A stretch of 58,756 nt of DNA from Bacilli bacterium (lineage in GTDB: Bacteria; Bacillota_I; Bacilli_A; RFN20; CAG-826): positions 1 through 58,756 of the forward strand of contig JAIKYF010000071.1 of NCBI GenBank assembly GCA_024683495.1. The letters run 5' to 3'. Below are positions 3,700 to 52,032 of this stretch, one piece after another (the stretch's first letter is position 1; the number at the start of each line of letters is the position of its first letter). Position numbers and translations under genes: made by a program. A model generated the notes under the pieces. It did not search any database and was not told where the DNA came from. It was given only the letters and a program-made list of their open reading frames with translations.

Positions 3700-4495
3700 C
3701 GATCGCTCCTCTTTTATGATATATCGACTCGAAGTAGCGGAATAACCAACTATTCAAGAAGGACATTAATAAGATATTGACGGGGCTTCCGATCAATAAC
3801 ATCACAAGGAAATATAAAAATCCCATCGGCCACCGGGAACTGGCCAAGAAATTATACCAGGTGTAGAAAGCCAAGGACTTAAAGAAGACCATTAATAGGA
3901 GCTCGCAGACGCTGGAGATGAGACCGATCTGATAAGGAGAAAGATAACTTCCGCTTCCTCTATCTTTTTTCTTATAGACCCTATTGACGAAATAAAGGCC
4001 GACTCCCGTCGTGAGGAAGACGACAAACATCAGCCCGATTAATAAGGGTTTGAAGAAAGATGGGTATTTAGAGAAATTCTCATCTAGGGAATGGTCAAAG
4101 GCCAAGAATATAGTGAGGCCGACGAAAGTCACTAAGAAGAGAGAATAAAGGATGATCATCGAGAGTCTTTCGGAGTGAATTTTCCGGACCAAAATTTGCA
4201 AAATCCACGGCAAAACCCCCATAAAACCATAAACGATGGTGATAAGGAAGTTGAATTCTCCGGTTGGAAAAGTCAAAGCCGGAATCAAATCGCTGAAGGC
4301 GCCGACAATCATTCCATAGAATGGTCCAAGGACCATGGAGGAAAACAGAATGATTGTCGGAGTCAAAGAGAAGCGGATGAAAGTGAAATTGGGAACGGTG
4401 AAAAGCTTAGCGACATAGGTCGAGGCTAAGGCTAAGGCCAGCATCAAGGCGGCTAAAGTGATTTTCTGAACGGGTTTTAAGCCAAATCTGTTCAT
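3689..4495 (-). CDS. Putative ECF transporter S-component (folate-family-like) with a C-terminal extension
   Basis: Polytopic membrane protein. Its N-terminal region, KITLAALMLALALAS...IRFSLTPTIILFSSMVLGPFYGMIVGAFSDLI, resembles ECF S-components. It is translationally coupled to folC. Confidence 0.55.
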   Translation of the reverse strand: MNRFGLKPVQKITLAALMLALALASTYVAKLFTVPNFTFIRFSLTPTIILFSSMVLGPFYGMIVGAFSDLIPALTFPTGEFNFLITIVYGFMGVLPWILQILVRKIHSERLSMIILYSLFLVTFVGLTIFLAFDHSLDENFSKYPSFFKPLLIGLMFVVFLTTGVGLYFVNRVYKKKDRGSGSYLSPYQIGLISSVCELLLMVFFKSLAFYTWYNFLASSRWPMGFLYFLVMLLIGSPVNILLMSFLNSWLFRYFESIYHKRGAIVDG

Positions 4496-10266: not shown

Positions 10267-11523
10267 ATGAAAGCATTGGTACTTTGCGGCGGAGGATCAT
10301 TAGGCATTTATGAGATAGGTGCTTGGAAATACCTCGAAGAAAGAGGAGAGCATTTCGATATCATCACCGGCTCCTCCATCGGTGCCCTCAATGGAGCCTT
10401 GCTTCTTTCGTCTAACTTAGAAGAAGCCATTGATTTATGGAACAAGATCACGGCCGAGGAAGTCATGGTCGATGGCTTCAATATGTATAAAGGGATGTTC
10501 GCCGACATCAAGAATGGCTCTTTGAAGAAAGCCCCGCAATTCATGAAGATCTATCTTAAGAATAGAGGGGCCGACATCACTCCATTCAAAAACCTCCTTA
10601 AGAAGTACATCAAACCCAAAATCATCGTCAAAAACCCCATAAAATTAGGAATCGTCACCACTTTATACAAGGGGCAAAAAGAAGTTAGAGTCCTTCTTAA
10701 TGAAGAGCCAGAAAAGAGAATCATCGATTGGCTTCTTGCCTCCAGCGCCTGCTTCCCGATTTTCCCCATGTATAAAATCGGCAAGGAAACCTATGTCGAT
10801 GGAGGATATAGCAATAACCTCCCCATCGACTACGCGATCGAGCTGGGAGCCGATGAAATCGTCGCCATCCCTCTGCCCGCCTTCCCGAAAGTCCCACAGC
10901 ATTCTGAAAGAATGAAACTTCCTTTCGTTAAGGCGATTAGGCCATCTCATCCAATGGGATTTTTGATGAACTTTGATAGAAAGACCCTCGATCAGAACTA
11001 TTTGATGGGTTATTTAGATGCAAGAAGAGCCTATGGTGAGACCTATGGGAATATCTTCTATTTCAAGAAAGACCCTAAACTAGATTCTTTAGCAGAGAAG
11101 TTCGTCTATGCAATCGCAAAAACTGATATAAATAACTATCAAAGAATCTCCGATTTCCTCGTTTTCAATGGCAAAAAGCCTATATCTTCCATGGATATGT
11201 TCATTCGAACCCTCGAGGAATTAGGCTCTTGGATTGATATCGATTTCTTAAAAGAATATGAACTCCAAGACTTCTTGACCGCCTGCCACGAGAAGATTCT
11301 GAAACTAAAGAAAGATAAATATTATCAGACTTTTGCTAAACGTCTGCCTCCCGCGAGAATCGTTTATCCTAAAGACCGGTTGGCCGCTTTAGATTATTGC
11401 TACAACCATTATAAGGATGAAAAAATCTCCAAAAGGCATCTTCAAATCAGAAGAGCCTCTCCGGAATCGGAAGCCGTCTACTTCCTCTTCCGGGTCCTGA
11501 GCCAAGAAGGCTACACGGTATAA
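10267..11523 (+). CDS. Patatin-like phospholipase
   Basis: Oxyanion GGGSLG, nucleophile elbow GSSIG (GxSxG) and catalytic DGG (VDGGYSNNLP). Confidence 0.85.
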   Translation: MKALVLCGGGSLGIYEIGAWKYLEERGEHFDIITGSSIGALNGALLLSSNLEEAIDLWNKITAEEVMVDGFNMYKGMFADIKNGSLKKAPQFMKIYLKNRGADITPFKNLLKKYIKPKIIVKNPIKLGIVTTLYKGQKEVRVLLNEEPEKRIIDWLLASSACFPIFPMYKIGKETYVDGGYSNNLPIDYAIELGADEIVAIPLPAFPKVPQHSERMKLPFVKAIRPSHPMGFLMNFDRKTLDQNYLMGYLDARRAYGETYGNIFYFKKDPKLDSLAEKFVYAIAKTDINNYQRISDFLVFNGKKPISSMDMFIRTLEELGSWIDIDFLKEYELQDFLTACHEKILKLKKDKYYQTFAKRLPPARIVYPKDRLAALDYCYNHYKDEKISKRHLQIRRASPESEAVYFLFRVLSQEGYTV

Positions 11524-12283: not shown

Positions 12284-12412
12284 GATTAATTTCCTTTCAA
12301 TGTTGTCCCCTCTATTATAAATCAAGGAATGAAATTAAAAAGCCAAACAAGAAAGAATTTTTCTTGTCTTATCCTTGATAAAAGTTCTAGGCGAGGCGAA
12401 AATACAAGGGCT

Positions 12413-12826
12413 ATGAAAAAACTTTATATTGATTCCACCGCTAGAGACCTCTTAGTCGCTAGGCAATTAAAAGAGGTCCTCACCAAGATTGATATCGATG
12501 CCGAAGTCAATTCTTTGGAAGACCAATTCTCGGGAGTGATCCTTCTTTTATTCACTAAAGACACGGTTAAAGAAGAGATGTTCAGGGAATTCAGTTGGCT
12601 GACTAGCGAATTCGATTTCTCTAAGGTTAAGAATCTTCGGGTCTTATGTTTCCTTGCTTATCATTCAAAAGAAAGAAAGGCCGAAGACCTCTTTGAGGAA
12701 GTCGTTTCCCCTGTCTATGAGGATTATTTCTCGGAAGAATTCAAACCTTACGCCTTTGATTTCGATAACGAGGAGCCGTCCTTGGAAGAATTGCAAGAGA
12801 TCCTCTTTGAAGGCTACTCCCTCTAG
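12413..12826 (+). CDS. Small cytoplasmic protein of unknown function with an alternating beta/alpha (flavodoxin/TIR-like) pattern
   Basis: 137 aa from MKKLYIDST. The segments GVILLLFTKDTVKEEMFREFSWLTSEF and RVLCFLAYH resemble TIR beta-C/alpha-C and beta-D regions. The start is uncertain: the ORF-track ATG at 12329 lies only 46 nt from the gpmA start. Confidence 0.5.
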   Translation: MKKLYIDSTARDLLVARQLKEVLTKIDIDAEVNSLEDQFSGVILLLFTKDTVKEEMFREFSWLTSEFDFSKVKNLRVLCFLAYHSKERKAEDLFEEVVSPVYEDYFSEEFKPYAFDFDNEEPSLEELQEILFEGYSL

Positions 12827-12847: not shown

Positions 12848-12877
12848 GCGTGCAAATCCCGCACGCTTTTTATTTTT
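12848..12877 (+). terminator. Rho-independent terminator after the small 12413-12826 gene
   Basis: GCGTGC aaatccc GCACGC followed by TTTTTATTTTT. It contains the recurring GTGCAAATCCCGC motif. Confidence 0.7.
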
Positions 12878-12952: not shown

Positions 12953-13897
12953 TTGTTATTATTACATATACGAGGAAAAATCATACTCACAAGCATTCCA
13001 AAAGATAGGCTAAAAGCCGTACTCTATCTAAAAGATTTGTTAGTTGAGAAGAGAATCTATGACCTTCCAGGACCCATAGATTTATCTTTCGAGGGAACAA
13101 GCCCTTTCGTGATGAATCTATTAGAAGAGCTCCCAGCCTCTATCTATGTTGGTAAAACTCTCTCCATCTATCTTGAAGATGAAAGCGAGGTCCTCTGGGA
13201 TAAGGCCAAGTCGATGGAATATCTAGAAACGTTGGGTCTGGTCCGCTTCGAAAAACTCTCGAAGATGGGAATGGCTGAACCGAAAGGGACTGTGATCAAG
13301 GTTAATGACGAACTGGGAAAAAGCCTTGAATATAGTGATGAAGAGTATGAGAACTTCTACCGGGAAATCCTCCATTTCTCCAACATCTTCAACGCCTTCG
13401 ACAATCTCGATGTCGTTGAGGGATATAAGCCTCTAAAAGATCTGGTGGCAGAGAAAAATGATCCAGGTTGCTTCACTTGGAAATATTATCTCCCCTATCT
13501 CTCCATCTATGCGAAAGCCAAATATATCGGCTTGGAACTCGATGGCTCGACCTTAAGCAAGATAGTAATAAACCCGACAATCCGTTCCTTCGTTGGGCTC
13601 GATACTAATCCCATTAGACATGAGGATTTCTATCTCGCCTTAAAGGGCTTATATAAAATGAAGGGGGATTTGCTTACAAAAACGGCCTCGCTTGAACATG
13701 ATATGTGGATCATCCGATCCATCTCCAAGCTCGGCTATCTAGAGAGCAAGAAGCATCTATATGTCCCGTTTGAGGAATTACCGCTAAGCGAAGATCCATC
13801 ATTGGCGGTAACCTACAATAACGACATCATCAAATACGATTATTTTGGGGTCTTGTGCCTCAACTTATATGCCACCAAAGGGGGTCAAAATGAATAA
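12953..13897 (+). CDS. Hypothetical protein, first gene of the candidate system operon
   Basis: 314-aa ORF with a TTG start in the track. The first in-frame ATG is about 45 codons in. I recognised no motif. Its stop overlaps the next gene's start by 8 nt. Confidence 0.55.
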   Translation: MLLLHIRGKIILTSIPKDRLKAVLYLKDLLVEKRIYDLPGPIDLSFEGTSPFVMNLLEELPASIYVGKTLSIYLEDESEVLWDKAKSMEYLETLGLVRFEKLSKMGMAEPKGTVIKVNDELGKSLEYSDEEYENFYREILHFSNIFNAFDNLDVVEGYKPLKDLVAEKNDPGCFTWKYYLPYLSIYAKAKYIGLELDGSTLSKIVINPTIRSFVGLDTNPIRHEDFYLALKGLYKMKGDLLTKTASLEHDMWIIRSISKLGYLESKKHLYVPFEELPLSEDPSLAVTYNNDIIKYDYFGVLCLNLYATKGGQNE

Positions 13898-14795
13898 AAA
13901 ATTAGAAGAATTCGAAATCTATAAAACCGCATCTTCTCTCGTCGATGACGGTTTGAAGAAATTACTCGAAAAATGGCAGATCATTTCCGAGAGACGGGCA
14001 ACTAGCGAAGGCGTTCCTCTTTTGCCAAACATCTTCTTGGAGTGCTCCAATGCCTTTGAGATTCAAGAATTTGTGACCAATTTGGGAGTCTTCCTCTCTG
14101 AGCAGAGAATCATGGACTTCGATGGGAAAGCTTTATCCTATTACTACGTCCTCGATTATTCGCGTTCCTCTAAAGAGAATTCCAAAGACATCGAAACTAT
14201 GGAAAGCCTCACTTTCCCGGGCTTCACCCATTTCTACACCGTCATCAAAGAGCAACTGACGAGATTCGGTAAGCCATATAGAGGCGTCTTAGCCATCGAT
14301 ATCACCGATTGGATCGAGGGAAGGCATTATGACGAAATAAAATTCCACGATTTCTTGGCTTTCATGCACGATAACGATGAATGCACGTTGGCGGTTTTCA
14401 TCTCCAAGTGCCGCGATGCCTCGAAGAACAGCGACGCCTTCAAGGAAATCGCCGCGACTTCGAGATTGATTCGCATCAAAGCCGATCATGCCGATGTCTC
14501 CTTGTTCCTCAATCAATTCAAGGAGCTCATCCACGAAAAGGGACTTGAGCTCGATAAAGAGAGCGAGAAAGTCATCACCGAGACAATCGTGGCCGTCAGC
14601 GAGAACAAATACGTGGACATCCACCACTTCCTCAGTGAATTATCGGTCGATTTAGCCTATAACAAATTCATCGATTCCGCCGATGACAAAGTCATCCATG
14701 GCGATGAGGTCGACTACTATAAGAAAGATGGGGAATTCGTCTCCGCTTACTTATCTAGCGGCAATTACGGCTACGGATTTAAGGGGGCCAGATAA
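13890..14795 (+). CDS. Degenerate AAA+ (SpoVK/CbbX/EccA-like) protein lacking canonical Walker motifs
   Basis: Start at MNKKLEEF with a GGGGG RBS. The layout resembles SpoVK-type AAA+ proteins: LPNIFLECSNAFE sits where GxxGxGKT is expected, GVLAIDITDW where GVLFIDEA is expected, and TLAVFIS and SRLIRIKADHADVSLF where sensor regions are expected. Confidence 0.4.
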   Translation: MNKKLEEFEIYKTASSLVDDGLKKLLEKWQIISERRATSEGVPLLPNIFLECSNAFEIQEFVTNLGVFLSEQRIMDFDGKALSYYYVLDYSRSSKENSKDIETMESLTFPGFTHFYTVIKEQLTRFGKPYRGVLAIDITDWIEGRHYDEIKFHDFLAFMHDNDECTLAVFISKCRDASKNSDAFKEIAATSRLIRIKADHADVSLFLNQFKELIHEKGLELDKESEKVITETIVAVSENKYVDIHHFLSELSVDLAYNKFIDSADDKVIHGDEVDYYKKDGEFVSAYLSSGNYGYGFKGAR

Positions 14796-14797
14796 CT

Positions 14798-16516
14798 ATG
14801 AACTCAAGCAGATACAAAAGATATATCGGCGAGCACGCCTTCGACAATGACTATCTCAGCGAAGCCGAAATCAAAAGCGTCCTCAGCGAATTCAATACAC
14901 TCAATCCTAAGCCCGGTGTCTTAGCGGGTTTGCCACTCTTATCCGATGGGAAGACGATGTATTTGGATAATGCCGACTACCATACCTTGATTTTGGGCGC
15001 CACCGGTTCCATGAAGACCCGTCTATTCGTCATGCCTGGCGTCCATGCCTTAGGGCAGGCGGGAGAGAACATGGTCATCACCGATCCTAAGGGTGAGATT
15101 TATGAGAGGACTTCCGGCTTCTTGAAATCCCAAGGATACGACATCAAAGTCCTCAATTTCCGTGACACCGACCACACTGATTACTGGAATCCTCTATATG
15201 AGGCGGCCAAATATTATCGGGAAGGCAATAGCCAAGATAAGGATTTTGCCATCGGAATGGTCTCTGATTTAGTCCAGATATTAGCCGCCCCGTTCAAGGG
15301 CCCCAAGGGCGATCCCTATTGGATGGAAATGGCCACCAATTACACGATGGCCTGCATCCTTATGGAATTCGTCTTATGCAAAGACATCAACAAGATCTCT
15401 CTTCGCAGCGTCGATAGTTTCATCAACGCCGCGGCGGAAGATGAAAGCTATGATGATGACGATGAGATAGATATCAAACGTCTATTCTCCATCATCCCCC
15501 CGACTCACGTCATCTCCTCCAAGGGACGCGCGACCGTCAATACGGCCAGAGTCACAAAGCAAGGCATCGTCGTCACCGCCAAGAGCTTGACCAACATGTT
15601 CACCAACTCAATCGGCATCTCAAGAATGACGACTCTTAACACGATCAATATCCACGACTTCTCATCCAAAGATAAAAAGACCGCTTTATTCGTCATCGTT
15701 CCCGATGAGAAGACCTCCACCCACTCTTTGGCGGCCTTATTCGTCAAGCAAGTCTACGAAACCTTGGTCAGAGACGCTCAGAAATTAGAAGGCTTCCGCC
15801 TCCCAAGAAGACTCAACTTCATCTTGGACGAATTCGCGAATATGCCAGAGATCGCCGATATGGGCTCTATGATTTCCGCGGCTCGTTCCCGTAACATCCG
15901 TTTCAATATTGTCATTCAGAATAACTCCCAATTGGTCTCCAACTATGGCTTAGAGAAAGCCGAGACCATCAAGAGCAACTGCTTGAACTGGGTTTATCTT
16001 TCCACCAAAGAGAACGCTCTTCTCGAGCAACTCCAGAAGATGGGTGGCAATAAAGTCACAAGCCGGGGCGAAAAGCCAGTCCTCAATATGGAAGACCTCA
16101 ATGGCTTAAAGAAAGGTTGGGGATACGCCGAAGCCTTACTATTATTAGCAAGAGCCAAACCTCACGTCACCAAAATCACCGACATCGATTCCTATCCCGC
16201 TTATAAGAAGTTAGATGCGGTGCCATTCCCCAAACTCAAAAAGAAATTCGACTTCTACACCTATAGCGACATCTTGAAAGAACACTCCATGAGAGAGCTT
16301 AAGTATCTCTTCGAAAGAGACGTGGCCCTCACCTTGGCAGACCCCGATGATGAAAGCGAGAAGGCAGGGAATAAAACAGAAGAAGTGACCGGGGCCCCAA
16401 ATGATAGACCCGGCGCGAACATCGACGTCAATAAAGATACCGCCTCATCTCCGCTTAAGCCACCATTCGGAGATAATAAGGACGACGATGACGACGACGG
16501 TGGCTTCGATTGGTAA
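14798..16516 (+). CDS. VirD4/TraG/TraD-family (type IV coupling protein-like) ATPase. It is soluble, with no TM anchor and an acidic C-terminal tail.
   Basis: HTLILGATGSMKTRLFVMP...VITDPKGEIYERT (P-loop region), Walker B RLNFILDEFANMPEI and RSRNIRFNIVIQNNSQLVSNYG (TraG-D_C-like). There is no hydrophobic N-terminus. The protein ends in NKDDDDDDGGFDW. Confidence 0.8.
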   Translation: MNSSRYKRYIGEHAFDNDYLSEAEIKSVLSEFNTLNPKPGVLAGLPLLSDGKTMYLDNADYHTLILGATGSMKTRLFVMPGVHALGQAGENMVITDPKGEIYERTSGFLKSQGYDIKVLNFRDTDHTDYWNPLYEAAKYYREGNSQDKDFAIGMVSDLVQILAAPFKGPKGDPYWMEMATNYTMACILMEFVLCKDINKISLRSVDSFINAAAEDESYDDDDEIDIKRLFSIIPPTHVISSKGRATVNTARVTKQGIVVTAKSLTNMFTNSIGISRMTTLNTINIHDFSSKDKKTALFVIVPDEKTSTHSLAALFVKQVYETLVRDAQKLEGFRLPRRLNFILDEFANMPEIADMGSMISAARSRNIRFNIVIQNNSQLVSNYGLEKAETIKSNCLNWVYLSTKENALLEQLQKMGGNKVTSRGEKPVLNMEDLNGLKKGWGYAEALLLLARAKPHVTKITDIDSYPAYKKLDAVPFPKLKKKFDFYTYSDILKEHSMRELKYLFERDVALTLADPDDESEKAGNKTEEVTGAPNDRPGANIDVNKDTASSPLKPPFGDNKDDDDDDGGFDW

Positions 16517-16535
16517 TCAAATAAGGAGAATAACC

Positions 16536-17138
16536 ATGGCTGAAGAAAAAGAAGAAAAGAAAGAACTCAAGATTGACGAAAAGTCCCTTGAACTCTTCCA
16601 AAAAGACAGAAACATCCTCATTCTCGGGGAAATCAACGAGAAAATGGCAATCAATATCCTTCTCAGGCTCCTCTATCTCGATTATGAGAACCCCGATAAG
16701 GAAATCACCATCTACATCCACTCCCCTGGCGGATCGGTTTCGGCCGGCTTAATCATCGTCGATGCGATGCAAAACGTGAGAGCCCCGATTAGAACCGTCG
16801 ATATCGGCATGGCCGCCTCAATGGCCTCGGTCATCTTGGCCTCCGGCTCCAAAGGCAGAAGACAGATCTTCGAGCACGCCAAAGTTTTGATCCATCAGCC
16901 GATGATCGTCATGGGCGGGGAGACTGCCACCAACACGACCCAGGCGAGAAAACTCTATGAGGATATGGCCCATGAGCAAGAAATCCTCGAATCCATCTAT
17001 GCCCTCCACTCCTGTGGAAAATACACTCGCGAAGATTATATGAAGCTCACCGACAAAGGCGACTACACGATGGAAGCCGATGAGGCCATGAAGATGGCCC
17101 TTGTCGATAGCATCATCAAACCTAGAGACATCAAATAA
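16536..17138 (+). CDS. Divergent ClpP-family (S14) serine protease
   Basis: Start at MAEEKEEKK, 7 nt after AAGGAG. Conserved YIHSPGGSVSAG, GMAASMAS (Ser95), LIHQP (His120) and TDKGDYTMEADEA (Asp173/176). The N-terminus is E/K-rich rather than the usual ClpP axial-loop sequence. Confidence 0.85.
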   Translation: MAEEKEEKKELKIDEKSLELFQKDRNILILGEINEKMAINILLRLLYLDYENPDKEITIYIHSPGGSVSAGLIIVDAMQNVRAPIRTVDIGMAASMASVILASGSKGRRQIFEHAKVLIHQPMIVMGGETATNTTQARKLYEDMAHEQEILESIYALHSCGKYTREDYMKLTDKGDYTMEADEAMKMALVDSIIKPRDIK

Positions 17139-17178: not shown

Positions 17179-20124
17179 ATGCCCTCTGACGGAAACTTTC
17201 TTGCCTCCACTCCCGAACTAATACGATTCTATCTATGTTTAATCATCGGACTGATCGTTTATTTCGGCGTGCTCGTCGGGGTTATCTACCAAAGAATCAA
17301 AAGGAAAACCTCCCTTTCTCCCTTTATCATCATTTCTTTGTTCTTTATCGGACATCTAATCATTTTGATCCCGGTTTATACCTTCCTTTATGACCATCAG
17401 CAACTGATGGGCAATTCTTTAATCCAGAATGGAATCCAGACCGGGACCATCCCTTATAATAACGTTCCTTCGTATTGGCCAGCCTTCAAGATTATCTCCG
17501 GCGCCTTCACGTCCTTCGTCTTCCAGATCGATTTCGATGCGATGGAATATCTTTCCGAATGCGGGGATTGGATCATCCGTAACTACTTCATCTTCATCGC
17601 CATCACGGCCGTCGCCGACACTATCGCCACTTCCTACGCCTTGATTAGACTCTTCTTAAGAGCCTTGAAGGCAAATGGAAAAACCATGTTTAGGTGGTTG
17701 GTGAGAGAAGACATTTATTACATCTTCACCGATTTGGAATTCGACGAGATCAAAAGCTTCATCATCGAACTTGAATCCGGAAAGTCCCGTCCAGGAAGAA
17801 AACCCCCTTCAGTCCGCGTCATCTTGTCTAGATCATCTCAATATACCGACCCCGGACGTGAGCTCCATGACCAATTAGTCAACGCAAGAATCGCCGTCTT
17901 CGCCGAAGACCTTTCAAAGCCTCTTCTTATAAAATTCATGCGCAAACACCGCATATTTTATAAAAAGAACGAGAAAGTGAACTTCTATTCTCTCTACTAT
18001 AAAGATGAGAAAAACTACGAGTTCGCCAGAATCGCCTGCGAGATTTTCGAAGATTGCGCGAAGAAGAAAGATACTGAGCATTACAACAAAAGATTCAACA
18101 CCTACATCAAATACAACCACTTCTACATCTCTTATCAAAACGCCGAATTATTCTTAGAGAACAATAATGACTTCGCCAAAAAGTCCCGCGGGGCCATCAG
18201 CTTGTTTAACGAATATACTTCCAACGCCGAAGATTTCGTTTTCAATATGCCTTTGACCGAATTCATCCTCAAAAGAAAGGGTGAAGATAAAGATGTCAAA
18301 GTCAAATTCACCGCCTTCTCCACATGCAATCCTCGTTTGAAGGATGGCTTAGGGTTTGGATTCTTAGGAGGGGATGTCACTAATCAAAACATCTATTCGC
18401 TTATTCCTTCCGTCGATATCAACTTCTTCGGATTCGGGCGAATCAACCAGACCTTGCTCACCAAGATGAGCTATACATATCAGATTCCCGGTTGCAACAA
18501 AGAGACTATGGGGAATATCGATCCAAACGATCCTAATTCCTATAAACTCAACTTCTTCGTTTATTCCAATGATGACAATTCCGAATTCGTCGATGCCCAT
18601 TTTAGAGGGGTATCCAAGGAAAACGATGCGGAATTGACGAGGAATTTTGGATATTTCACCGATATATTCAATTTCGAAAACGAAATTAGGCTGCAGAATT
18701 CCTTAGAGAGAATCGTCGATCGGGCCTCCTACCATAACATCAATAAAGATGGGGAAGACATCGATGTCGAAAAACAACCCTCTAGAGAAGTCATCATCAT
18801 CGCGACGGGCGATCCTCATAACAATTTCGCCCTCGCCGTCAAGACTCAGCACATCATCCGCCAAATCATCGCGAAAAGAAAAGCCTTGGGCGAAAGATTC
18901 AAATCCATCCCCATCTTCGTCCATATCAACCGCGAGAAGATCTATAACTCCAGCTTCATCGGCGATGATATCTTCGAGATGAGGCAGATTAGCCCAGTCA
19001 TCAATAGGGATAATAACTTCCCAGGCGAAAACGGAACCTCAAGCGAAAGAGAGATTTATCTATCTACCGCCGTTCCAATCGTTATCTTCGGCCGCGATAA
19101 GCGTTTCCGTTCCGATGATAGCGCCTCTTCGCTTAAGCCATTCGCCGTCAGGAGCAAATATGTCTATGACTATGATTATGATTTGGTGTTGAGCAAAGAT
19201 GGCTATAGCTTCAGTTTGAAGAGAAACTCCAAGCCAACGATCGATGCCAAGGCCGAGAACAAATTCGACATCGATGATGTCCGTAACTGCGAATCCAACT
19301 ATGCGACCGCGGCTCATTTGCCAACGAAGTTAGGCTTAATGGGTCTATGCCCCGCTTTCGTCGCCGAGAAGGAAAACGCCGCTCAAAGACATGAAGCCAT
19401 CAAAGATAAGCTCGGTGCCCTCAATAACGTCTTCGATCTCAATGAAGTGGATTCAGGAGCTTTGACCGCCTCGATGAAGGAACTACAAAAATTGGTCGCT
19501 GAATATCTTGAGCACCGGAAATCCATCAAGGCTGATTCGAAGACCACAAATATCACTTTAGCCCAAAAACAAAAATATAAGAAAATCGTCAAATATTTAC
19601 AAAATAATACGGTTTTGCTCGAGAAATATTATGAAGTCTTCACTCTCGGCTTCGTGAACAGAATAAAGCCGGGACTAAGAATCCTCGCCGAGACCGAACA
19701 CAATCGCTGGCTTTATTATTGCTTGTCTAGAGGAGATGTCCCGATGAGCAGAGAGCACTTCTTCTCCAAGAACATCGAATATTATTCCACCAAAGGCACT
19801 AGAAGGGGCAATTTCTCCAAAGATGCCGGAGGAACCGTTCACTTCAACCTCATCGATTTCTCGAATAGAAAGCAAGCCATCCTCGACCAGGCTGTAGTGA
19901 GTCTATTAACCATCGCTGACGATAGTCCGAAAACCATTTATGAAGATATGAAGAAAATCTTCGAATCCTACTACTTCAACGATGCTAAACTCTATATCTT
20001 CTCGGATTTCTTCTTAGAAGGGACCGAATACGATTTAGTCGAAGAGGATAACTTCTTCGAAGTCTGCGAAGAGGATGTCGATTATAGCGGTTCGACAATC
20101 TCCACCGCCACGAAAAATCAATAA
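17179..20124 (+). CDS. Large polytopic membrane protein with cytoplasmic TrkA-N/Rossmann-like and C-terminal RyR-like regions
   Basis: 981 aa with an AAGGAGG RBS. About four N-terminal TM helices lie in the first ~170 aa. INFFGFGRINQTLL (aa ~414) and VIIIATGDPHNNFALAVKT (aa ~538) resemble KTN/TrkA-N segments. LAETEHNRWLYYCLSRGD...VHFNLIDFSNRKQAILD (aa ~835-900) resembles a RyR domain. Confidence 0.6.
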   Translation: MPSDGNFLASTPELIRFYLCLIIGLIVYFGVLVGVIYQRIKRKTSLSPFIIISLFFIGHLIILIPVYTFLYDHQQLMGNSLIQNGIQTGTIPYNNVPSYWPAFKIISGAFTSFVFQIDFDAMEYLSECGDWIIRNYFIFIAITAVADTIATSYALIRLFLRALKANGKTMFRWLVREDIYYIFTDLEFDEIKSFIIELESGKSRPGRKPPSVRVILSRSSQYTDPGRELHDQLVNARIAVFAEDLSKPLLIKFMRKHRIFYKKNEKVNFYSLYYKDEKNYEFARIACEIFEDCAKKKDTEHYNKRFNTYIKYNHFYISYQNAELFLENNNDFAKKSRGAISLFNEYTSNAEDFVFNMPLTEFILKRKGEDKDVKVKFTAFSTCNPRLKDGLGFGFLGGDVTNQNIYSLIPSVDINFFGFGRINQTLLTKMSYTYQIPGCNKETMGNIDPNDPNSYKLNFFVYSNDDNSEFVDAHFRGVSKENDAELTRNFGYFTDIFNFENEIRLQNSLERIVDRASYHNINKDGEDIDVEKQPSREVIIIATGDPHNNFALAVKTQHIIRQIIAKRKALGERFKSIPIFVHINREKIYNSSFIGDDIFEMRQISPVINRDNNFPGENGTSSEREIYLSTAVPIVIFGRDKRFRSDDSASSLKPFAVRSKYVYDYDYDLVLSKDGYSFSLKRNSKPTIDAKAENKFDIDDVRNCESNYATAAHLPTKLGLMGLCPAFVAEKENAAQRHEAIKDKLGALNNVFDLNEVDSGALTASMKELQKLVAEYLEHRKSIKADSKTTNITLAQKQKYKKIVKYLQNNTVLLEKYYEVFTLGFVNRIKPGLRILAETEHNRWLYYCLSRGDVPMSREHFFSKNIEYYSTKGTRRGNFSKDAGGTVHFNLIDFSNRKQAILDQAVVSLLTIADDSPKTIYEDMKKIFESYYFNDAKLYIFSDFFLEGTEYDLVEEDNFFEVCEEDVDYSGSTISTATKNQ

Positions 20125-20126
20125 TG

Positions 20127-20162
20127 AAAAACGAGTTCAGATGACGTTCTGAACTCGTTTTA
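20127..20162. terminator. Bidirectional terminator closing the candidate operon
   Basis: ACGAGTTCAGA / TCTGAACTCGT stem flanked by A and T runs, between convergent genes. It overlaps the stop codon of the phosphatase gene. Confidence 0.75.
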
Positions 20163-51055: not shown

Positions 51056-51199
51056 GGTGTTGCCTCCTTTGGATTACGAAGTCCACTTAATATAACACAC
51101 TATAGAGATATTTTGAAAAGTTATCTTTGATAAAGGATGGGCTAAAGAGGGATTTTACAACAAATTCTTCCTAAGATGTTCGGCCTAGTATAGAATAAT

Positions 51200-51340
51200 G
51201 CCGTCCGACGGGGAGCTTTTGAATGAAGCTGAGAGGCCAGAGTATTACTGGCGACCCGCGACCTGAACTAGATAATGCTAGCGGAGGGATCGGTTATCTC
51301 TTTTTAACCAATTTCCGCTGCAAATCCAGCGGATTTTTTA
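51200..51340 (+). promoter_or_regulatory. TPP (THI-box) riboswitch with a terminator expression platform
   Basis: The aptamer contains CCGACGGGGAGC...GCTGAGA...ACCC...ACCTGA.CTAGATAATGCTAGCGGAGGGATCGG. The terminator TCCGCTG caaatc CAGCGGA TTTTTT lies at 51314-51340, just before the RBS. Confidence 0.85.
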
Positions 51341-51354
51341 TTGGAGGTACCGTA

Positions 51355-52032
51355 ATGGACAAGAGAAAAAACTTCATCAAGATCATGTGTGAAGTCGCGA
51401 TCATGGCTGCCCTCGGGTTCGTGATTGACGGATTGCAATCGGCAATCTTTAGAGGGGTTTTCACAGCCGGAGGCTCAATCGGATTCGCCTTAGTGGCCGT
51501 CTGGATAATGAGCTACCGCAGAGGCTTTGTGGCAGGCTTGTGCACAGGCGCAATCATGGCCTTGCTTGATGTGGCGACCGGGGCGAGCATGATCGCTTCT
51601 TCCATCGACAAAGTCATCTTGCAAGTCACACTCGACTATCTTCTCGCCTATCCTTTGGCTTCTTTGGCCGGATTGTTCCATCATTCTTTCGTGAACGCCA
51701 AAGAAAAGAAGATGCAATATGTTTGGATCATCGTCGGATGCTTAGTCGGCGGACTTGCTAAGTATGCTTCCCACTTCTTAAGTGGTATACTTTTCTATGC
51801 AGATCCCACTTATTTTGTCTGGCCCATTCGAAATGCGTGGCTTTATTCATTGCTTTATAACGGGGCTTACACCATTCCCTGCGTCGTCTTATCCGGGGCG
51901 ATCATGGTCGTGGTTTTCTGGAAGGCTCCCCGCCTATTCTTAGAGCCAAACCGCATCTATCAATCGGCGGTCAAAACCGAAGAACCGGCTAAAGTAGAAG
52001 AAAAGCCAAACGAAGAAAAGGAGGGTGAATAA
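51355..52032 (+). CDS. thiT: Thiamine ECF S-component (ThiT/YuaJ-like)
   Basis: Start at MDKRKNF after GGAGG. It is a six-TM protein with a GGSIGFALVAVWIMSYRRGFVAG segment and sits directly behind the TPP riboswitch. Confidence 0.7.
   Translation: MDKRKNFIKIMCEVAIMAALGFVIDGLQSAIFRGVFTAGGSIGFALVAVWIMSYRRGFVAGLCTGAIMALLDVATGASMIASSIDKVILQVTLDYLLAYPLASLAGLFHHSFVNAKEKKMQYVWIIVGCLVGGLAKYASHFLSGILFYADPTYFVWPIRNAWLYSLLYNGAYTIPCVVLSGAIMVVVFWKAPRLFLEPNRIYQSAVKTEEPAKVEEKPNEEKEGE

Follow-up and report, generated by a model that had tools for sequence, protein, structure and literature searches.

The gene at positions 16536-17138 of the window (the whole stretch of DNA analysed, 58.7 kb, which is also the whole contig) encodes a ClpP-type protease that is probably active and, judged from its sequence, belongs to a small, undescribed branch of ClpP. 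Every member of this clade examined is encoded in one operon with a gene for a VirD4-like ATPase, usually 1-24 nt downstream of it. These findings suggest a new kind of ATPase-protease partnership within an uncharacterised, probably defensive cassette. With a probability of roughly 0.55, we favour the reading that the peptidase works together with the VirD4-like ATPase and the partner protein encoded upstream of the latter in a sporadically distributed, conflict-type cassette. The features of the region are as follows:

12329-12826, plus strand: 165-aa protein, doubtful cassette member, with a terminator-like hairpin after it (12848-12866)
12953-13897, plus strand: conserved upstream cassette gene (about 314 aa, start position uncertain), recognised by its positional homologues
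13890-14795, plus strand: 301-aa partner protein of the VirD4-like ATPase; IGF-like motif Y295-G296-F297 at its C-terminus (nt 14772-14780)
14798-16516, plus strand: putative soluble ATPase of 572 aa, VirD4/TraG family (T4CP-like, FtsK/HerA superfamily), by Pfam and NCBIfam
16523-16529, plus strand: Shine-Dalgarno-like AAGGAGA of the ClpP-like gene, by direct sequence reading
16536-17138, plus strand: ClpP-like S14 serine peptidase, 200 aa (GenBank MCR4562241.1)
16536-16601, plus strand: non-canonical N-terminal tail, residues 1-22, MAEEKEEKKELKIDEKSLELFQ, replacing the ClpP gating loop
16818-16820, 16893-16895 and 17061-17063, plus strand: codons of the catalytic triad residues Ser95, His120 and Asp176, by alignment to E. 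coli ClpP
17179-20124, plus strand: 981-aa protein with three predicted N-terminal transmembrane segments and a large soluble part
20128-20161, unstranded: perfect 14-bp hairpin, bidirectional and terminator-like, closing the operon (inverted repeat I16)

The start of the ClpP-like gene at 16536 is supported by the AAGGAGA sequence 7 nt upstream and by the stop codon of the VirD4-like gene, which lies before it at 16516. Alternative starts exist in the form of a 245-aa ORF from 16401 and a public gene call of 216 aa (P0393). The product matches Pfam CLP_protease (PF00574) over residues 18-196 with E=1.5e-44 and 152.5 bits against a cut-off of 20.2, which places the assignment to S14 far above chance. 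A first-pass annotation of this DNA had already read the gene as a ClpP paralogue with an intact triad. The motifs it quoted were found in the ORF translation at the residues it had given, with YIHSPGGSVSAG at residues 60-71, Ser95 in GMAASMAS, His120 in LIHQP, and TDKGDY. In the alignment, S95, H120 and D176 correspond to S97, H122 and D171 of E. coli ClpP; of the two aspartates proposed for the triad, Asp176 holds the catalytic position and Asp173 does not. The oxyanion-hole positions are kept as well (G66 and M96, corresponding to E. coli G68 and M98), and across the VirD4-linked clade the triad Ser, His and Asp are present in 12/12, 12/12 and 11/12 members, respectively. The AF2 model reached a pLDDT of 85.6, and its top 50 PDB matches were all ClpP (Foldseek TM 0.82-0.85, rmsd 1.1-1.6 Å). 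In public databases the protein is currently labelled 'ATP-dependent Clp protease proteolytic subunit', and the VirD4-like genes are labelled 'conjugative DNA transfer protein'.

Fold, triad, oxyanion Gly/Met and handle helix E are shared with the housekeeping ClpPs of E. coli, S. aureus and T. thermophilus, but the window protein lacks their N-terminal gating loop. The residues of the canonical gate and of the ClpX/ClpA pocket were taken as defined earlier (bioRxiv 10.1101/820209). None of the gating-loop residues P4, V6, I7, E8, G13, E14, R15, Y17, D18, I19, Y20 and R22 occurs in the window protein, which bears out the proposal that the axial loop has been replaced. All 12 clade members lack these residues, whereas in the 20 canonical ClpPs used for comparison they vary little or not at all. 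In their place, 13 of the first 22 residues are charged, and all database alignments to ClpPs start only at about residue 21-24. The AF2 model shows pLDDT values below 50 at residues 1-12, with helix A beginning at residue 15. When only the first 40 residues were scored, they gave 23.7 bits against a profile HMM of the remaining clade members (window sequence excluded) and no match to the canonical HMM. Within this segment, the window protein carries the clade pattern x(n)-[LAV]-x2-F-x3-R-N. Loop replacement characterises the whole clade, and docking pocket and equatorial sensor have changed along with it, which goes beyond the earlier annotation.

At least nine further distinct metagenomic loci carry the same cassette, made up of a VirD4-like gene, a ClpP-like gene and the gene of about 300 codons that precedes them. 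In eight distinct loci the ClpP-like gene directly follows the VirD4-like gene with gaps of 1-24 nt; this order is found in the window (gap 19 nt) and also in L003, L008/L084, L073, L077, L079, L081 and L082. Besides these direct pairs, there is one permuted operon (L075) and one more distant VirD4-like/ClpP-like pair (L161). The linkage was recovered from both sides. Starting from VirD4, adjacent ClpP-like genes were found in L003/4/5, L008/9 and L073 and a ClpP-like gene in the same operon in L075, the gap measuring 14-24 nt in the window and in the loci found in this way. Starting from ClpP, an exhaustive HMMER search ranked P0244 and P0246 at the top, and all four nearest relatives (P0244, P0246, P0307 and P0386) follow a VirD4-like gene at a distance of 1-5 nt. 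The VirD4-like ATPases of the related loci are 34-46% identical to that of the window and reside in differing chromosomal settings. The divergences of ATPase and peptidase co-vary (Mantel r=0.88, p=2e-4), and the peptidase evolves as fast as its ATPase neighbour, in which it differs from housekeeping ClpP. The suggested link to the adjacent FtsK/HerA-type ATPase is in this respect real, as conserved synteny; taken by itself, such sequence evidence is a sign of co-inheritance of ATPase and peptidase, not of contact. A VirD4-based metagenome scan, from which L084 (an L008-type cassette) and L161 were obtained, returned 80 loci, of which 20 contained the partner gene and only two a ClpP-like gene; in L161 the ClpP-like gene is present and the partner gene was not detected. 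As the wider VirD4-like/partner family mostly occurs without a ClpP-like gene, the ATPase does not require the peptidase.

The first-pass identification of the upstream neighbour as VirD4-like was corroborated by Pfam T4SS-DNA_transf (6e-40), with additional matches to TraG-D_C and TrwB_AAD_bind, and by the NCBIfam CD1115 family (269 against a cut-off of 250). The protein has a Walker A motif GATGSMKT, a Walker B motif FILDEF and a disordered acidic C-tail, and no transmembrane segments were predicted. The Walker A motif lacks the canonical Gly before the Lys. We rejected this as a sign of a dead ATPase, since GxTGS[KM]K[ST] is a family trait, present together with a conserved Walker B in 120 of the 120 closest homologues. 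With conjugative CD1115 T4CPs such as that of pBMB64 from B. thuringiensis, the protein shares the T4SS-DNA_transf, TrwB_AAD_bind and TraG-D_C matches, Walker B and the downstream motifs. In contrast, the pBMB64 protein has the Walker A sequence GTTGSGKT and two N-terminal transmembrane segments, whereas the cassette ATPase has no transmembrane anchor; the relaxase, TrbL, PrgI and VirB4 neighbours of the plasmid gene are missing beside it, and identity does not exceed 31%. An HbYX-like docking function of the C-terminal end (...DDDDDDGGFDW) was considered and dismissed, as homologues have unrelated tails, most of which terminate in runs of Lys. All VirD4-like proteins carry low-complexity tails of 70-150 residues whose sequence is not conserved, and the VirD4-like protein showed no docking element. 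No fused effector domains were found in the longer VirD4-like ORFs.

In every cassette that could be resolved in full, as in the 20 metagenome loci mentioned above, the gene immediately before the VirD4-like gene encodes a homologue of the 301-aa partner. In the partner alignment, Walker A is decayed and has lost its Lys, and a Walker-B-like motif hhhhD/N-I-D/T-D/E-W is discernible; a profile search against the PDB returned CbbX at E=0.06 over the sensor-1/lid region. The earlier designation of this neighbour (13890-14795) as a 'degenerate AAA+' protein agrees with the decayed Walker motifs and with the CbbX match, which supports it weakly, and hhalign against ClpX was insignificant. The partner is probably a P-loop-dead AAA+ protein of the CbbX/SpoVK-like type. 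Its C-terminal [IYVM]-G-[FL] is kept in 17 of 19 sequences. A single-sequence AF2 model of the partner had a pLDDT of 40. The cassette is best explained by an invariant core, consisting of a putative soluble VirD4/TraG-type ring ATPase and this AAA+-like partner of about 300 aa, to which the ClpP-like and three-TM proteins are recurrent additions.

The 981-aa protein encoded downstream of the peptidase had no Pfam or PDB match and only two distant homologues in a set of 5.8 billion proteins. RyR-like or Rossmann domains, suspected from its motifs, received no Pfam support at E<=5 and no PDB match. Full-length homologues (23-28% identity) with the invariant motifs FGFGxINQ and MEHNRW follow the ClpP-like or the VirD4-like gene in L003, L006, L073, L075 and L077. 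This membrane protein had been put forward as the target of the peptidase. A large three-TM protein follows the ClpP-like gene in five of the eight distinct ClpP-bearing cassettes with enough downstream sequence (the sequence of a ninth, L081, stops at the ClpP gene, so that it is outside this count), and in L006 it occurs without ClpP, which rules it out as a general substrate. A narrower proposal is that a ring of the gate-less ClpP-like protein cleaves or matures a specific cassette protein with no unfolding by an ATPase, the target being either the giant three-TM protein or the disordered VirD4-like tail, comparable to phage prohead proteases or to immunity pairs of a protease and a pore-former. 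The two genes are directly adjacent in the window, L003, L073, L075 and L077, and the pair is intact even in the permuted L075 operon. Gate loss would admit unstructured segments without a motor, and such segments are offered by the tails of all VirD4-like proteins. However, L008/L084, L079 and L082 carry ClpP but no large protein, L006 shows the reverse, the tail sequences are not conserved, and the VirD4-like gene is the sole invariant neighbour of the ClpP-like gene. We consider ATPase-independent processing unlikely.

The distance to housekeeping ClpP extends beyond the gate. The IGF/IGL docking pocket was scored at L23, L24, L48, F49, A52, Y60, Y62, F82, I90, M92, F112, L114 and L189, and about one third of the positions are altered in the VirD4-linked clade. 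Positions L24, F49, F82 and F112 are mostly polar or non-aromatic in the clade; in the window protein L24 is replaced by Q, F82 by N and F112 by Q, and F49 is a conservative Y, this position being non-aromatic in the other 11 members. Positions L23, L48, Y62, I90, L114 and L189 are still hydrophobic, as is M92 in the window protein. By its residues, the docking pocket of the clade is remodelled rather than abolished. In addition, the Gly-Gly after HQP is replaced in the clade, with an insert of 2-3 residues. The Arg170 position, an inter-ring and oligomerisation sensor, is E, D, K, I or L in 11 of 12 clade members; the window protein has K and a one-residue insertion. All nine NCBIfam ClpP models scored the window protein under their cut-offs, at 42-63% of the required values (e.g., TIGR00493, 130 vs 308.6; NF001368, 155.7 vs 249). 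Against the HMM of the other clade members it scored 210 bits, compared to 175 bits against the canonical HMM, and canonical ClpP controls showed the reverse with about 195 and 320 bits, respectively. In a core-only NJ tree, all 12 VirD4-linked members group together, with a bootstrap support of only 21%. The window protein is the most divergent of them (mean identity 37% to the clade and 35% to canonical ClpPs). Its nearest proteins among 5.8 billion are canonical ClpPs of at most 44% identity, matched from about residue 22 onward.

These data bear on the possibility that the protein is only the housekeeping ClpP of a fast-evolving, poorly sampled lineage of Bacilli, with ClpX, ClpC or ClpE encoded on other contigs and an incidental VirD4 adjacency. 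The intact triad and the good ClpP fold would fit such a role, as would the ordinary chromosome with uniform GC around the gene and the GenBank annotation as a plain Clp protease subunit. Furthermore, half of the docking-pocket positions (6/12) are hydrophobic, so that docking of a conventional Clp ATPase may still occur. Against this stand the recurrence of the adjacency in at least nine other distinct loci with ATPases only 34-46% identical, the loss of all N-terminal loop residues, the preference for the clade HMM, which canonical ClpPs reverse by more than 100 bits, and the low NCBIfam scores. We regard a housekeeping role as very improbable; clade HMM, cut-off scores and lost gate together support the specialised ClpP-type protease that had been suggested from the letters. 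Specialised ClpP paralogues are known from other lineages: actinobacterial ClpP1/ClpP2, cyanobacterial and plastid ClpR and B. subtilis TepA are lineage-specific duplicates with specialised roles and altered N-termini or docking surfaces; as far as is known, they continue to form complexes with canonical ClpP, with AAA+ Clp ATPases or with both. No NCBIfam model for such paralogues scored the window protein above its cut-off. We know of no paralogue of the ClpP1/ClpP2, ClpR or TepA type described as linked to an ATPase of the FtsK/HerA superfamily. The genomic partner of the peptidase is VirD4-like and not an AAA+ Clp ATPase. That no Clp ATPase is encoded nearby, as noted before, holds for the entire 58.7-kb window, where ORFs with a Walker A motif comprise two ECF-transporter-type ATPases, a PcrA-like and a TsaE-like protein and two chance matches. 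The related cassettes are likewise accompanied by neither a Clp ATPase nor a T4SS gene.

The window flanks consist of housekeeping genes with flat GC content, and neither att-like flanking repeats nor a GC anomaly indicated a recent insertion. Like ClpP-related phage prohead proteases, the window protein combines the S14 fold with the lack of a canonical N-terminal gate and of a dedicated Clp ATPase, and it matches the prohead-type PHROG 94 with E=2e-31. Yet, in agreement with the earlier remark that no capsid gene accompanies it, the prohead alternative is rejected: the head-maturation model NF045542 gave 75 against a cut-off of 120, no capsid, portal or scaffold gene and, in the five neighbours of the ClpP-like gene, no PHROG structural match was present, and structural matches to prohead-type proteins (TM 0.62-0.77, 16-26% identity) were worse than those to cellular ClpPs. 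That the locus is the relic of a mobile element, either a decayed ICE or plasmid T4CP module or a degraded prophage without current joint function, can practically be dismissed, since, although the CD1115 family of Firmicute conjugative T4CPs is clearly the origin of the ATPase, phage ClpP-like proteases are common (566 phage records match) and the VirD4-like gene of L080 is broken, no relaxase, VirB4, TrbL/PrgI, integrase, capsid, portal or terminase gene occurs in the window or related loci, the genes are intact, tightly spaced and kept in order over deep divergence with family-specific motifs under selection, the closest plasmid or phage homologues do not exceed 32% (ATPase) and 41% identity (peptidase, with no phage record above 40%), and the partner gene was not found in IMG/VR viral contigs. 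The cassette as such was likewise not found on the plasmids, phages or viral contigs searched.

Of all cassette proteins searched against PADLOC-DB v2, only the VirD4-like protein matched, weakly (mad8, E=7e-9); the ClpP-like protein, the partner and the large protein gave no match. Several neighbourhoods have a conflict-like character, with a TIR-NB-ARC protein in L006, TIR proteins (by motif only) flanking the pair in L110, a DpdE/ZorD-like SNF2 helicase in L079 and a PDC-M37B/DolB-like AAA protein in L003. The cassette is most likely a conflict module, directed against phages or plasmids and exapted from a conjugative coupling protein, with the peptidase as one of several interchangeable outputs. 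According to the favoured reading, the peptidase would no longer use ClpX, ClpA or ClpC; instead, the VirD4-like hexamer and its partner would deliver substrates to it or switch on its activity. With no gate in its pore, the peptidase would depend on delivery and no longer on the opening of a gate. The basic-[I/Y]-G-[F/L] tail at the C-terminus of the partner is a candidate plug for the remaining ClpP pocket, similar to the IGF/IGL loops of ClpX and ClpA. However, this tail is conserved also where no ClpP-like gene is present and may simply bind the ATPase.

A more far-reaching version, which we put forward as doubtful, is an energy-dependent protease of a new class, with a coupling-protein-type ring motor of the FtsK/HerA superfamily in place of an AAA+ unfoldase. 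A P-loop-dead AAA+ protein would bridge this motor to a gate-less ClpP by inserting its IGF-like tail into the ClpP pocket, and the complex would serve as an immune effector. In cassettes without a peptidase of their own, the same tail might recruit or deregulate the housekeeping ClpP of the host. Such a complex might capture clients of coupling proteins, e.g., incoming relaxase-DNA complexes or phage DNA-bound proteins, and destroy them, or unleashed proteolysis might lead to abortive infection. To our knowledge, all characterised self-compartmentalised proteases (ClpP, HslV, Lon, FtsH and the proteasome) are driven by AAA+ rings, and we know of no T4CP ring that partners with any protease; in the literature searched, no description of a VirD4/TraG/T4CP-ClpP system was found. 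If the partnership is physical, a ClpP lineage that lacks the gate and part of the AAA+ docking surface and is inherited only with a T4CP-type ATPase would extend the rule of the AAA+ motor and would represent a conjugation protein exapted for proteolysis or immunity. The cassette is a candidate for a new defence or conflict system in gut-type Bacillota that is little covered by current defence catalogues, and its genes now bear the labels of an ordinary Clp subunit and of conjugative transfer.

Among GTDB species representatives, peptide patterns derived from the alignment gave no matches. A DNA pattern for AASMASVILA yielded 62 stretches, 41 of which encode a ClpP relative; none is accompanied by a cassette neighbour, and nearly all match only from about residue 23. 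The 165-aa protein at the upstream border had no Pfam, NCBIfam, PADLOC or PHROG match, and apart from an ORF located three genes before the L079 cassette (35% identity over 98 aa) it has no homologue. The following protein of about 314 aa, which had only a sub-threshold match to AbiJ_NTD5 (E=0.02), has homologues at the equivalent place in L003/L005, L008 and L077, and the large protein of L075/L076 ends in a stretch that matches the C-terminal part of this protein.

The ClpP-like protein described in the first-pass annotation is the exact translation of a 200-aa open reading frame in the window, which is the entire public contig, labelled 'MAG: Bacilli bacterium'. This gene and its companions are arranged as follows:

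16536-17138, + strand: ClpP-like S14 peptidase gene, 200-aa ORF (MCR4562241.1)
14798-16516: VirD4/TraG-family ATPase gene, neighbour upstream of the ClpP-like gene
14996-15019: Walker A GATGSMKT, residues 67-74 of the VirD4-like protein, no canonical Gly before Lys
14772-14780: YGF, Y295-G296-F297 of the 301-aa partner
17179-20124: 981-aa protein with three TM segments

The start codon at 16536 is well placed, with AAGGAGA 7 nt upstream and the stop of the VirD4-like gene at 16516, and the ribosome-binding site favours it over longer calls (16401-17138, a mechanical call of 245 aa, and 16488-17138), both of which overlap the 3' end of the VirD4-like gene. A 216-aa version occurs in public data (database protein P0393). 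Pfam CLP_protease matched residues 18-196 (E=1.5e-44) and, as had been read from the sequence alone, the catalytic triad is intact, with Ser95/His120/Asp176 aligning with S97/H122/D171 of E. coli ClpP and the oxyanion-hole Gly/Met positions retained in this alignment. The supposed replacement of the N-terminus was also borne out: residues 1-22 (MAEEKEEKKELKIDEKSLELFQ; 13 of 22 charged) match no ClpP, and all alignments to solved structures, GTDB genomes, phages and plasmids start at residue 21-24. An AF2 model (pLDDT 85.6, residues 1-12 disordered), which is biased towards canonical ClpPs because it was built on an alignment of these, superposed on ClpP structures with a TM of 0.82-0.85 and an rmsd of 1.1-1.6 Å; prohead-type viral proteins were a poorer structural match to it.

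From the VirD4 side, the genomic contexts of the closest ATPase homologues (41-51% identical) revealed a recurring operon. It encodes a ~300-aa protein, a VirD4-like ATPase and a ClpP-like protein of 200-222 aa, frequently joined by a protein of 830-1383 aa that carries three TM segments at its N-terminus; homology was confirmed by BLAST for each component. The operon with the ClpP-like gene is present in loci L003/4/5, L008/9 and L073 and, in permuted order, in L075; the peptidase gene is missing from two relatives, L006/7 and L074. From the ClpP side, 1.84 billion representatives were searched exhaustively by HMMER with the ClpP-like protein as query, and just 8 proteins reached E<=1e-30. 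The best matches, P0244 and P0246, have the same non-canonical N-terminus, and these two as well as P0307 and P0386 are, in four of four cases, encoded directly downstream of a VirD4-like gene, at a distance of 1-5 nt. When JGI metagenomes were scanned using the ATPase alignment, the L008-type locus turned up once more (L084), along with a more distantly related VirD4-like/ClpP-like pair (L161). Through these look-ups from the VirD4 side, the ClpP side and metagenomes, the ClpP-like gene was therefore never observed without the ATPase gene at the loci examined. The ATPase and its ~300-aa partner often occur without the peptidase; among 80 metagenome loci, the partner gene was found in 20 and the ClpP-like gene in only 2, of which L161 has no detectable partner gene. 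Across eight loci, the pairwise identities of the ATPase co-vary with those of the peptidase (Mantel r=0.88, p=2e-4), and since the ATPase of the ClpP-less locus L006 nests among those of ClpP-bearing cassettes, the absence of ClpP there points to a secondary loss. The ClpP-like peptidase and a soluble, T4CP-derived ATPase are inherited together as one unit.

By TM prediction the ATPase is soluble, its Walker A variant GxTGS[K/M]K[S/T] is family-wide (120/120 closest homologues), and Walker B and the downstream motifs are kept. In contrast, a conjugative T4CP of the same NCBIfam family, CD1115, on pBMB64 (locus L164) has two TM segments and GTTGSGKT, and its gene sits between a MobP3 relaxase and TrbL/PrgI/VirB4-like genes; neither a relaxase nor TrbL/PrgI/VirB4-like genes were found in any cassette locus. 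The ~300-aa partner had no match in Pfam, NCBIfam, PADLOC or PHROG. In an alignment of 19 family sequences, Walker A is decayed (e.g. LPNYLWVAKRGGGIST, Lys absent) and a Walker-B-like hhhhD/N-I-D/T-D/E-W is visible, and the family profile matched the AAA+ protein CbbX in the PDB over the sensor-1/arginine/lid region. Because the Walker motifs are decayed and the CbbX match reaches only E=0.06, the earlier label of a degenerate AAA+ protein is probable, yet short of proof. The family also ends in an unexpected conserved motif, basic-[I/Y/V/M]-G-[F/L]-x-G, which lies 2-10 residues before the C-terminal end and occupies the same position in L003, L006, L008, L073-L075, L077, L079, L082 and 12 metagenome loci; its tripeptide is the one with which ClpX docks on ClpP (GSGIGFGAT). 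Where a cassette has no ClpP-like gene the tripeptide mostly reads IGF; in five of the eight that have one it reads YG[LF]. As the motif is conserved in both situations, the tail may equally be a handle for the ATPase as a ClpP dock.

We infer, with a probability of about 0.55, that the ClpP-like peptidase exchanged its Clp AAA+ partners for the VirD4-like ATPase and the pseudo-AAA+ companion, and that it would be one optional output of a conflict-type cassette. The first-pass annotation had noted no Clp ATPase nearby, and indeed no Clp-type ATPase is encoded in the whole contig. A pairing of VirD4/TraG/T4CP with ClpP was not found described in the literature searched (full text), and public annotation of the cassette genes provides generic names only; the partnership, if physical, would be categorically new. 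It is possible, if rather unlikely, that the protein is instead an ATPase-independent processing protease whose target is the large membrane protein or the ATPase tail, an explanation weakened because the large protein is missing from three ClpP-bearing cassettes.

This 981-aa protein has no recognisable domain and only two distant homologues in 5.8 billion proteins (L001, 10001-13111; L002, 1338-4505), which close operons with DO-GTPase2, small radical-SAM and several large unknown proteins. From the invariant family motifs FGFGxINQ and MEHNRW one might expect a nucleotide-binding domain as well as a conserved helical one, which no profile backs. The C-terminal third of a 314-aa upstream protein (12953-13897) is homologous to the C-terminus of large proteins at two other loci, a fusion-type clue hinting that the 314-aa and the large protein may act together:

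L075, 6866-7141: C-terminus of the 1383-aa large protein
L076, 3604-3879: C-terminus of the 1294-aa large protein

A second conserved module, not present in the window, lies just downstream of several cassettes (L003 13022-17683, L075 10555-17692, L076 7293-14430). It encodes a ~345-aa protein with a faint transglutaminase-core match, an AAA_2/AAA_5 ATPase of ~755 aa that PADLOC marks as PDC-M37B/DolB-like, three further proteins (110, 534 and 604 aa) and a radical-SAM protein (Fer4_12).

That the window protein is a divergent housekeeping ClpP is improbable. Its best non-self matches in the 5.8-billion-protein set, at most 44% identical, are canonical ClpPs, whose N-terminus reads VPxVIEQ...GER..DIYSRLL. 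Each of the nine NCBIfam ClpP models scored far below its curated cut-off (e.g. 155.7 vs 249 and 130 vs 308.6), the phage head-maturation model also fell short (75 vs 120), and at the sequence level the protein is not of the housekeeping type. An HMM of the other members of the VirD4-linked clade, built without the window protein, gave it 210 bits vs 175 with a canonical-ClpP HMM, residues 1-40 alone gave 23.7 bits and no match, respectively, and canonical controls were reversed (about 195 vs 320). Both this test and the recurrent synteny speak against a divergent housekeeping ClpP. A neighbour-joining tree of the core region only (residues 23 to end) placed all 12 members in one clade, with bootstrap support of just 21%, and the window protein is the most divergent of them.

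The 12 members were compared with 20 canonical ClpPs at the gate and docking sites defined in a ClpAP cryo-EM study (bioRxiv 10.1101/820209). All gating-loop residues (P4, V6, I7, E8, G13, E14, R15, Y17, D18, I19, Y20, R22) are lost in 12/12 members; pocket positions L24, F49, F82 and F112 are mostly polar or non-aromatic, and L23, L48, Y62, I90, L114 and L189 remain hydrophobic. Following HQP, the Gly-Gly has given way to other residues and a short insert, and at the position of the inter-ring sensor Arg170, 11 of 12 members have E/D/K/I/L. The triad is kept (Ser and His 12/12, Asp 11/12). With its ClpP fold, the window protein is an intact peptidase from a clade that is distinct and evolves fast; its apical surface (gate and docking) and its equatorial surface are remodelled. 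In L161 (4630-7531), where the VirD4-like gene is far more distant (31% identity), the gene directly after it encodes a ClpP-like protein whose N-terminus is non-canonical, and a metallophosphatase-like gene comes next. This ClpP-like protein scores slightly better with the canonical than with the clade HMM (209 vs 177); the pairing of ATPase and ClpP may have an earlier origin or have evolved repeatedly.

A mobile-element relic is highly improbable: the cassette was not found in phage or plasmid collections nor the partner gene in IMG/VR, and even the nearest relatives of the ATPase on plasmids and in phages share no more than 32% identity with it. The window cassette is flanked by housekeeping genes at flat GC content, with ordinary chromosomal genes in the window by eye (gatCAB-, ligA-, pcrA- and tsaBDE-like ORFs) and no att-like repeats, and the operon, of five genes, runs between terminator-like hairpins at 12848-12866 and 20128-20161. 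The chromosomal context differs between loci. With regard to the preferred reading of a conflict-type cassette, conflict-type genes often adjoin it (L006, L110, L079, L003), namely:

L006: TIR-NB-ARC
L079: DpdE/ZorD-like SNF2 helicase with SWIM protein
L003: PDC-M37B/DolB-like AAA protein

At L110, ORFs at 65-1192 and 3700-4206 with N-termini that are TIR-like by motif only (…DVFISYSSKD…, …FDVFISYAHKD…) flank a partner/VirD4-like pair without a ClpP-like gene. Two genes upstream of the window cassette, a patatin-like phospholipase (10267-11523; Pfam 3e-34) with weak PADLOC phospholipase-effector matches (E=5e-10) is probably unrelated to it. The ORF at 51223-52032 is preceded by a TPP riboswitch (51199-51306; Rfam RF00059, 65.8 bits).
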